Below are positions 1-930 of a DNA stretch of 64,000 bases, piece by piece. The notes beneath the pieces were generated by a model, which was given only the letters and a program-made list of their open reading frames with translations, ran no database searches and was not told the origin of the DNA. Position numbers and translations under genes: made by a program. Source of the DNA: Pseudomonadota bacterium (GTDB lineage: Bacteria > Bdellovibrionota_B > Oligoflexia > Silvanigrellales > Silvanigrellaceae). The stretch lies in contig JBDLRP010000041.1 in assembly GCA_039799905.1 (NCBI GenBank), positions 86,140 to 150,139 of the forward strand. The letters are read 5' to 3'. How positions within the stretch are numbered: position 1 is the stretch's first letter; each line of letters begins with the position of its first letter.

Positions 1-930
1 GGGCTGTTGTACCGCAGGGTTTTGAGCGCCCGGCTGTTGAACGACACCTCCGCCACCCGGATTTTGAGTCGTCGGGTTTTGGGTTGTTGGATTCGGTAAC
101 GTCGGATTCTGCACAGTCGGATTCTGTGTTGTCGGATTTGGCAAAGTTCCCGGCAGACCAACCGGTGGTTTGCCACCCTTAGATGATCCGGCAGGACTTC
201 CCACACCACACAGACCAGGCATCACATAAACTTTTGGATAAAAACCGCTCTCAAGGTCAACTTGGTCGGACGCACTGCGATCCAGCCCTTCGTTCACCAC
301 ACGCTGGATGTCGACAATAACTCCTACTGTCACATCATGCGACCGGACCTCATAATACGGTGTGCCGTTAAAAGCCGACCCTTGCTGCGAAAACACTCTG
401 AAAATGGCTCTTCCGCTGGGAAGTGAGTTGTAGCAGCGTTTTCGAAAGCGGGGGCTGTTCGGTGGAATCTGAAACACATCTACGACTGCAGACTGGCCTT
501 CAGCACGCGGGGTTCCAGGCGATGACGTTCCCGGTGTAGACCAGAAACCACGACGGACAACGCCGCGCATTTCGTAGTTGGCTGGATCGATGTACGAATT
601 CTGGCAGGTGTCTGGATGCGGAAATGGTTCAGGGTTGTTCGCATAGCTTGGGTCCCGAGAACCATCCAAAGGCCTCCGTCCAACCTCGTCCGACGGCATT
701 CCGGCGGCGCATCCGCGGTTGAAAACGTAGAAACCTGTATCGGTCAGCTTGCTGATGAGATCGGGCGACATCGTGTTGCGATGGTAGGTGAGCAGCTCTT
801 CTACGAAGCTGTTACCTCCCGAGCCGACCGACTGAGCTGTTGTTTCATTGAACTTGCGCGGCTGACATCCAACCAATACGAGCGCGGAGATTCCAAACAA
901 CCCAGTGGTCCGTGCACAAATCGATCGCAT
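1..930 (-). CDS. Hypothetical lipoprotein with T-x-(Q/P)-N-P repeats; 3' end runs off the window (not in ORF track)
   Basis: Manual translation of the minus strand: ATG at 930, GGAGG 8 nt upstream, MRSICARTTGLFGISALVLVGC|QPRKFNETTAQS..., open for 310 codons to the window edge; lipobox LVGC. Confidence 0.8.
   Translation of the reverse strand, partial: MRSICARTTGLFGISALVLVGCQPRKFNETTAQSVGSGGNSFVEELLTYHRNTMSPDLISKLTDTGFYVFNRGCAAGMPSDEVGRRPLDGSRDPSYANNPEPFPHPDTCQNSYIDPANYEMRGVVRRGFWSTPGTSSPGTPRAEGQSAVVDVFQIPPNSPRFRKRCYNSLPSGRAIFRVFSQQGSAFNGTPYYEVRSHDVTVGVIVDIQRVVNEGLDRSASDQVDLESGFYPKVYVMPGLCGVGSPAGSSKGGKPPVGLPGTLPNPTTQNPTVQNPTLPNPTTQNPTTQNPGGGGVVQQPGAQNPAVQQP
58..147 (-). repeat. Six imperfect 15-nt coding tandem repeats (TLPNP/TTQNP/TVQNP)
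   Basis: Plus-strand units cggattttgagtcgt, cgggttttgggttgt, tggattcggtaacgt, cggattctgcacagt, cggattctgtgttgt, cggatttggcaaagt. Confidence 0.85.

Follow-up and report, generated by a model that had tools for sequence, protein, structure and literature searches.

Two lipoproteins of the window, by which we mean the whole stretch of 64,000 nucleotides analysed here, carry a real, sharp and clade-specific tag directly behind the predicted lipidated cysteine, and the same tag recurs on unrelated lipoproteins of the source genome and its relatives. The core of the tag is C-x-x-R-x-[FY]-N, which spans positions +1 to +7 of the mature lipoprotein, +1 being the predicted lipidated Cys. The sequence appears to be new: the tag would work in the manner of the Bacteroidota LES and the Acinetobacter GspN motifs and matches neither. 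From analogy, register and cargo we infer a surface routing, and our leading reading, to which we give somewhat under an even chance, is that the tag is a sorting signal by which folded lipoproteins reach the cell surface, likely via a type II secretion system (T2SS) with GspN.

Register and enrichment of the motif

The minus strand reads CQPRKFNETTAQS at 867-829, in a gene with its ATG at 930, and the plus strand reads CKPREFNQSTPQS at 59059-59097; both 13-mers follow a hydrophobic leader and a lipobox (Table 1). As an earlier note on this DNA had stated, CQPRKFNETTAQS and CKPREFNQSTPQS agree at 8 of 13 positions and the two proteins are otherwise dissimilar. BLASTP of the 710-aa protein against the 310 aa of the 930-gene protein that lie in the window returned a leader/tether match alone (11/24, E 3e-4), the rest having E values of at least 1, and the two are not full-length homologues. 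The consensus proposed from this pair, C-x-P-R-x-F-N-x-x-T-x-Q-S, survives in its R/F/N core and was over-specified at Pro+3 (12 of 74 carriers) and in the exact T-x-Q-S tail (2 of 74). The three ‘weaker echoes’ that had been seen in the hydrolase cluster (Cys at 53716, 55893 and 57036, minus strand) lack R+4, F/Y+6 and N+7 and do not belong to the motif. One of these echoes lies in a lipoprotein (56098-57108, minus strand) with an Lnb N-terminal domain (PF13387), a family named for the Bacteroides lipoprotein N-acyltransferase.

The 930 gene extends 89 bp past the window (G000:C41:86050-87135) and encodes 318 mature residues; its protein gave no Pfam or NCBIfam match and no usable ESM Atlas match. 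For the 58993 protein, searches of Pfam, NCBIfam and PDB sequences were likewise negative. The window also encodes an untagged adhesin-like lipoprotein of 1,887 aa with Big_9/cadherin-like repeats (3754-9417, plus strand).

Table 1. Tag-related features of the two window lipoproteins (positions in the window; parsed orthologues of the 930 gene are 8 out of 13 loci).
Feature	Position	Strand	Basis and conservation
Tagged lipoprotein of no known family, Pro/Gln/Asn-rich tail	1..930	-	Restricted to genus g1 (13/34 order genomes)
Ser/Thr-rich linker with Q+12, weak second element	829..846	-	Q+12 in 8/8 parsed orthologues; +9 to +11 vary
Core tag C-Q-P-R-K-F-N (+1 to +7)	847..867	-	Sequence; CQPR[KR]FN in 8/8 parsed orthologues
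Predicted lipoprotein signal peptide, lipobox L-V-G|C	868..930	-	Sequence; heuristic call
Tagged 710-aa lipoprotein	58993..61125	+	Body homologous (25-31%) to soluble domain of cyanobacterial ‘Abi (CAAX) family protease’ proteins
Predicted lipoprotein signal peptide, lipobox L-N-S|C	58993..59058	+	Sequence
Core tag C-K-P-R-E-F-N (+1 to +7)	59059..59079	+	CK[PS]RxFN in 8/8 full-length close homologues, 64-94% identity
Ser/Thr-rich linker with Q+12, S+13, weak second element	59080..59097	+	Q+12/S+13 in 8/8 close homologues; T+10 in 2/8

In the source genome (G000), a hexamer model gave 2,810 genes, and a lipobox heuristic predicted 463 lipoproteins. The heuristic makes errors: membrane or cytoplasmic proteins accounted for at least 7 of the 53 untagged controls. 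C-x-x-R-x-[FY]-N is the dominant fixed-position signal of this set, with 17 of the 463 predicted lipoproteins carrying it against 0.48 expected, and with its recurrence in relatives the motif is not restricted to the two window proteins. Column shuffling gave a maximum of 3 in 2,000 shuffles, the observed 17 being 35-fold over shuffles. Among the 11,819 Cys of called genes the core occurs at 15, every one of them a lipobox Cys and none internal; two further carriers lay in genes with mis-set starts. By the same heuristic call, carriers show the predicted features of Lgt/Lsp substrates (a basic n-region, a hydrophobic h-region, and a small residue followed by Cys).

The tag keeps a strict distance from the Cys. 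Within +2 to +9, R-x-[FY]-N begins at +4 in 17 proteins and at +5 in a single protein, with no other start, and its proteome-wide count is close to expectation (177 vs 154). Fixed positions are R+4, F/Y+6 and N+7, while +3, +5 and +8 onward vary; neither Lys nor Gln ever replaces R+4, +7 is Asn in all strict carriers, and a few near-carriers deviate at +6 or +7. At +2 the 17 carriers have Lys (10), Gln (3), Val (2), Arg (1) or Thr (1). No convincing case of the core on a non-lipidated secreted protein was found among 25 N-terminal RxF/YN matches, and Pfam and NCBIfam hold no model for the tag.

A looser, floating second element, to which Q+12 may belong, was found in 28 of 57 carriers (9.7 in shuffles) and in 6 of the 17 carriers of the source genome (1.7 in shuffles), compared with 58 of 446 untagged lipoproteins (43 in shuffles); we treat it as a lead only, because it was defined after seeing the data. 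No other fixed-position tag in the source genome survives about 87,000 triplet tests. Two recurrent tethers that are not significant after multiple testing are E-x-G/E-N-P, common to three families (G000 C20:54355, C26:82465, C42:20379), and a Lys run in seven C-G/K-K-K-K starts across seven families.

Distribution, cargo and modularity of the tag

In our survey, which covered one phylum, the tag is limited to part of one family. Searching the DNA for small-C-K-x-R-x-[FY]-N, with reversed patterns as controls, we found five genus-level groups of this Silvanigrella-like family of Oligoflexia with 10-43 matches per genome: 10-20 in g1 (13 genomes), 15 in g2, 38 in each of two g3 genomes, 43 in g5 and 19 in g6, with 0-5 for the reversed controls. 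Elsewhere in the family there was one match in g4, none in g7 and 1-4 per genome in g8 (13 genomes; controls 0-6). No match was found in f2, and each of 88 Oligoflexia genomes of other families had 0-4. The tag is thus at chance level in the sister group and in these 88 genomes.

Inspection of individual loci gave the same picture. A hydrophobic leader precedes the tag at all 60 loci read in G006 (30 of 43 matches) and G003 (30 of 38); of these loci, 57 passed a filter on length and hydrophobicity. A looser pattern revealed clear carriers in G005 (two of seven examined) and G008 (one of three examined), and true carriers were seen in every genus from g1 to g7. In g8, none of the matches checked by locus was a true carrier (0/6 and 0/18, hence 0/24). 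Outside family f1, 18 of the 19 matches checked lacked a leader or an ORF, and one (G052) is a possible carrier. One of the 11 matches in the source genome itself (C17) was discarded as chance, being antisense within another gene. Lipoproteins are sparse in g8 (15 per 400 kb vs about 140 per Mb in G000), and lipoprotein-rich outgroups had no tag in 75 sampled lipoproteins. No alternative tag was evident in small samples from G026 (15 lipoproteins), G008 (19), G034 (33), G100 (15) and G067 (27); in G034, several lipoproteins (L271, L274, L278) have an unusual F/Y-Q-N|C-G lipobox.

Relatives with names are uncultured Silvanigrella/Oligoflexia MAGs, and sequencing runs containing the gene are mostly freshwater metagenomes. 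To our knowledge there is no cultured tag-positive strain. In this uncultured freshwater lineage the tag marks 10 to more than 40 exported enzymes per genome, mostly without an assigned family.

Pfam matches were obtained for 4 of the 17 strict carriers of the source genome, namely transglutaminase-elicitor (twice), FAD oxidoreductase and trypsin. Among the relatives' carriers, 10 of 55 matched trypsin, GH31, Fic, amine oxidase, polysaccharide deacetylase, NlpC/P60 (below cut-off), lipase 3, M23, tyrosinase or M48; the other 45 had no Pfam match, many of them searched as 507-aa pieces. Six of nine further carriers matched M10 (below cut-off), M48, trypsin-LRR, deacetylase, astacin or M14. The 53 untagged controls also hold met-zincin, amylase, subtilase, M48, esterases and transglutaminase-elicitor, which counts against a simple rule that an enzyme bears the tag; thioredoxin, TPR, cytochrome c and LemA lipoproteins were seen solely among these controls. 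Two carriers, an amine oxidase and a tyrosinase (L041, L081), have twin-arginine-like leaders, which suggests that their cargo is exported folded. The tagged lipoprotein with the Fic domain lies at L035:499-1521 (G006:C67); Fic enzymes usually need cytoplasmic nucleotides. For a near-carrier with Ser at +7 (L006:8524-9462; G000:C11:24458-25465), the ESM Atlas gave only leads below 0.9, among them a weak one to DUF4765 (0.87); its conserved H-R-G-T and G-I-F-T-T-P motifs presumably recall ADP-ribosyltransferase folds. A near-carrier pair had no PDB sequence match.

That the tag is lineage-specific and sits on unrelated cargo, as the earlier note had proposed, is borne out: the 17 carriers of the source genome fall into 14 unrelated families, and 78 carriers and near-carriers from three genomes into 64 BLAST clusters. 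Leaders upstream of the tag are mutually unrelated, and across 74 carriers each of the six codons for Arg is used, as are both of those for Cys, Phe, Tyr and Asn; the tag is therefore neither a DNA repeat nor a copied cassette. It is kept in orthologues down to about 30% identity. In the 58993 family all eight full-length close homologues have it, and three homologues of a sister clade (51-54%) are lipoproteins with another tether. This tether, C-L-P-[AK]-R in P0010, P0011 and P0013, is possibly another tag or a shifted variant. Eighteen distant homologues, several of them named as Abi/CAAX-protease proteins of cyanobacteria, have no tag and mostly no lipobox, the absence of a lipobox holding for most of the cyanobacterial relatives as well. 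Of eight trypsin-family lipoproteins in the source genome one is tagged, and one near-carrier has an untagged paralogue that is 76% identical (C26:125465 vs C32:76480). Judged from these sequences, the tag is modular, gained and lost on cargo, and selected at the protein level.

No neighbour gene recurs among the carriers of the source genome or at 77 carrier loci, and we rejected a cis-encoded translocon on these grounds. Since carriers are scattered without a common neighbour, any reader would act in trans, and we consider it very probable that the tag is selected and read by such a factor.

Known sorting signals and possible roles of the tag

Three fixed residues in a strict register make the tag sharper than known post-Cys signals, which we compare here as described in the accessible portions of the cited reports. 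The Bacteroidota LES is K-(D/E)2 or Q-A-(D/E)2 after the lipidated Cys, with a net negative charge (PMC5080379), and LES lipoproteins are exported by the LPS translocon, an expanded Lpt (bioRxiv 10.64898/2026.10.03.756453). Like the LES, the tag is short, position-dependent, directly behind the lipidated Cys and found on unrelated lipoproteins. Whereas the LES is acidic, loose and phylum-wide, the tag is of a basic-aromatic-Asn type with invariant R+4 and N+7, has the consensus C-K-x-R-x-F-N, which falls outside the LES definition, and occurs in part of one family. The T2SS/GspN sorting motif of Acinetobacter InvL and Klebsiella PulA is GGG or ND(N/D) at P2'-P4' (PMC12802150). The tag shares with it a location within P1'-P8', a host T2SS with GspN (though GspN occurs in tag-negative genomes too) and enzyme cargo; it differs in sequence and in its three fixed residues at +4, +6 and +7. 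Neither GGG nor ND(N/D) is present at P2'-P4' in any of the 17 carriers of the source genome or of 60 matches in relatives, the latter having been pattern-selected for K+2.

Lol avoidance depends on Asp+2 in E. coli and on Lys+3/Ser+4 in Pseudomonas, and in Myxococcus Lys+2 marks the inner membrane and Ala+7 the extracellular matrix (PMC3222651, accessible portion). The tag resembles the Myxococcus rule in its common Lys+2 and in the key position +7. In contrast to these single-residue rules it is a multi-residue consensus with Asn instead of Ala at +7, and none of the 17 carriers of the source genome has Asp+2. A further parallel is MYXO-CTERM/myxosortase, also a lineage-specific tag on dozens of unrelated proteins, by which lipid-anchored cargo reaches the surface via the T2SS (PMC11980579, accessible portion); MYXO-CTERM, however, sits at the C-terminus and comes with a membrane helix and a protease of its own, while the tag is N-terminal with an ordinary lipobox. 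In the literature searched, with subscription papers and supplements largely outside its scope, we found no description of the motif or of lipoprotein sorting in Oligoflexia.

That the tag governs trafficking is, in our estimation, probable. As a sorting signal for the T2SS it would come into play once the protein has been exported by Sec or Tat and lipidated by Lgt/Lsp. The tag, in many cases accompanied by Lys+2, would divert the protein from the default Lol route, lipid and peptide would be read jointly by a T2SS component, and the folded enzyme would pass the secretin and remain attached to the surface or to vesicles, there to digest external polymers or cells. Candidate readers are GspN, for which Acinetobacter provides the prior, and a second candidate, a stand-alone, predicted-soluble GspC (HR+PDZ). 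The strict +4/+6/+7 register, unrelated cargo, Tat-like leaders and the presence of a T2SS with GspN favour this reading. Against it stand the sameness of GspN, LolA, LolC/E and LptD in tagged and untagged genomes, the secreted-type hydrolases among many untagged lipoproteins, the basic and aromatic character of the tag, unlike the T2SS motifs GGG or ND(N/D), and the small number of lipoproteins overall in tag-negative g8. A stand-alone GspC is also present in G005 and G008, which have two clear carriers and one, respectively, among the matches checked.

Surface export or vesicle packing could also be signalled through a route other than the T2SS, by an Lpt-type translocon or another outer-membrane factor, which we hold to be unlikely while giving it some weight. 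The LES, as the nearest parallel, uses the LPS translocon for export, a route that the authors of that work suggest may be general (bioRxiv 10.64898/2026.10.03.756453, accessible portion). LptD is large here, with open frames of 997-1,097 aa; it is, however, equally large in g8 and f2, the carrier loci offer no recurring neighbour as a translocon candidate, and the Tat-like cargo fits a route for folded proteins. The tag might instead be the site of a membrane-bound enzyme that frees cargo from its anchor, or modifies the Asn, and so releases or activates it. An invariant Arg beside an aromatic residue is typical of protease sites, and in two tagged trypsins the mature IVGG/ILNG start lies just four residues past the tag. 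Pro-pieces are equally short in untagged trypsins, though, a soluble protease needs no fixed distance to the lipid, and no candidate enzyme was found; N-x-S/T sequons at the conserved Asn occur in merely 25 of 74 carriers, which does not fit N-glycosylation. On balance we think such a processing site improbable.

Quite improbable, too, is Lol avoidance alone, by which the enzymes would stay on the inner membrane, facing the periplasm. Known signals of this kind consist of one to three loosely defined residues between +2 and +4, whereas here +4, +6 and +7 are fixed and +2 varies. Lys+2, found in 10 of the 17 carriers of the source genome, does recall its occurrence in 8 of 12 inner-membrane lipoproteins of Myxococcus xanthus (PMC3222651, accessible portion), and the cell's own wall is a conceivable substrate for M23, NlpC/P60 and deacetylase cargo; for lipase, GH31, tyrosinase and Fic cargo an inner-membrane use is not obvious. 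We see little chance that the tag, in place of directing traffic, docks delivered cargo onto a shared scaffold such as a surface layer or an outer-membrane partner. A short R-x-aromatic-N with a flexible Ser-rich linker would suit a peptide-binding groove, yet the cargo is already lipid-anchored, and a register this strict relative to the lipid speaks for lipid and peptide being recognised together, and against docking. A functionless tag, either a copied leader cassette or a compositional match, is hardly credible and largely refuted already. The tethers are indeed short and of low complexity, and the heuristic produced its at least 7 false positives in 53; unrelated leaders, the use of all synonymous codons, R, F/Y and N fixed amid variable +3, +5 and +8 onward, the 35-fold excess over shuffles and the absence of the core from internal Cys all contradict it.

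Candidate machinery

For the sorting signal that we favour, the source genome has a T2SS operon, gspC-C-D-E-F-G-H-I-J-K, whose GspD exceeds the cut-off of TIGR02517, and a gspL-M-N-N-like operon in which each GspN exceeds that of TIGR04411. Its two tandem GspC-like genes (G000:C26:46537-48622; L084/L085) recur in most genomes of the order. The tandem gspN duplication (G000:C21:191292-193674; L126:9292-11674; 46% identical) is found in G000 and G015 alone among 34 genomes, and two GspN copies were accordingly rejected as an explanation of the tag. GspN itself occurs in 34 of 34 genomes of the order, tag-negative ones included. LolA, two LolC/E and LptD are present in the source genome and alike across tagged and untagged genomes, and differences in them were dropped as a correlate. 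A search for Slam (PF04575), a translocon frequently encoded next to its substrate, gave 0 of 5 genomes, with the control of that search silent as well. None of the trafficking genes follows the distribution of the tag cleanly.

A third, stand-alone GspC-like gene (HR+PDZ) lies at G000:C39:108070-108762 (L086:10070-10762), its best PDB match being Klebsiella PulC. It is present in 20 of 20 genomes of g1-g7 and in 0 of 14 of g8 and f2, in conserved synteny and with high conservation across g1-g7 (52-98%). The end of its hydrophobic stretch, 2-12 residues ahead of the HR domain, looks like that of a cleavable signal peptide, and with such a signal peptide in place of a membrane anchor the protein is predicted to be soluble. 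Many Oligoflexia that lack the tag have short GspC-like genes too (30-43% identity; in G034, one with a cleavable-looking leader), so the co-distribution of tag and stand-alone GspC rests on one loss in g8. The PDZ domain of GspC has been implicated in substrate specificity (bioRxiv 10.64898/2026.05.07.723501, accessible portion). We offer as a long shot that this soluble GspC is a periplasmic adaptor, which would read the lipid-adjacent R-x-[FY]-N and pass dozens of unrelated folded lipo-enzymes, among them some that depend on cytoplasmic substrates such as Fic, on to the T2SS, to be displayed on the surface or delivered to other cells.

According to the accessible portion of a recent report, no universal T2SS recognition element has been identified (PMC12802150). 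If the adaptor reading were true, the tag would give the T2SS a defined linear signal for recognition, served by a dedicated reader. The tag bears on the selection of lipoproteins for the bacterial surface and on cargo recognition by the T2SS, and natural pairs of tagged and untagged paralogues, together with the short list of candidate readers, make it directly testable.

LptD (L166, G000:C3:3-2918) measures about 1,000-1,200 aa in six of six genomes checked and adjoins an Omp85 paralogue; the gene beside it we take to be AsmA/TamB-like. The window itself holds an outer-membrane biogenesis cluster (15346-27318, minus strand) with lolC/E, lolD, bamA and skp, followed by genes whose translations, as we take them, resemble lpxD, fabZ, lpxA, lpxB, msbA and lpxK.
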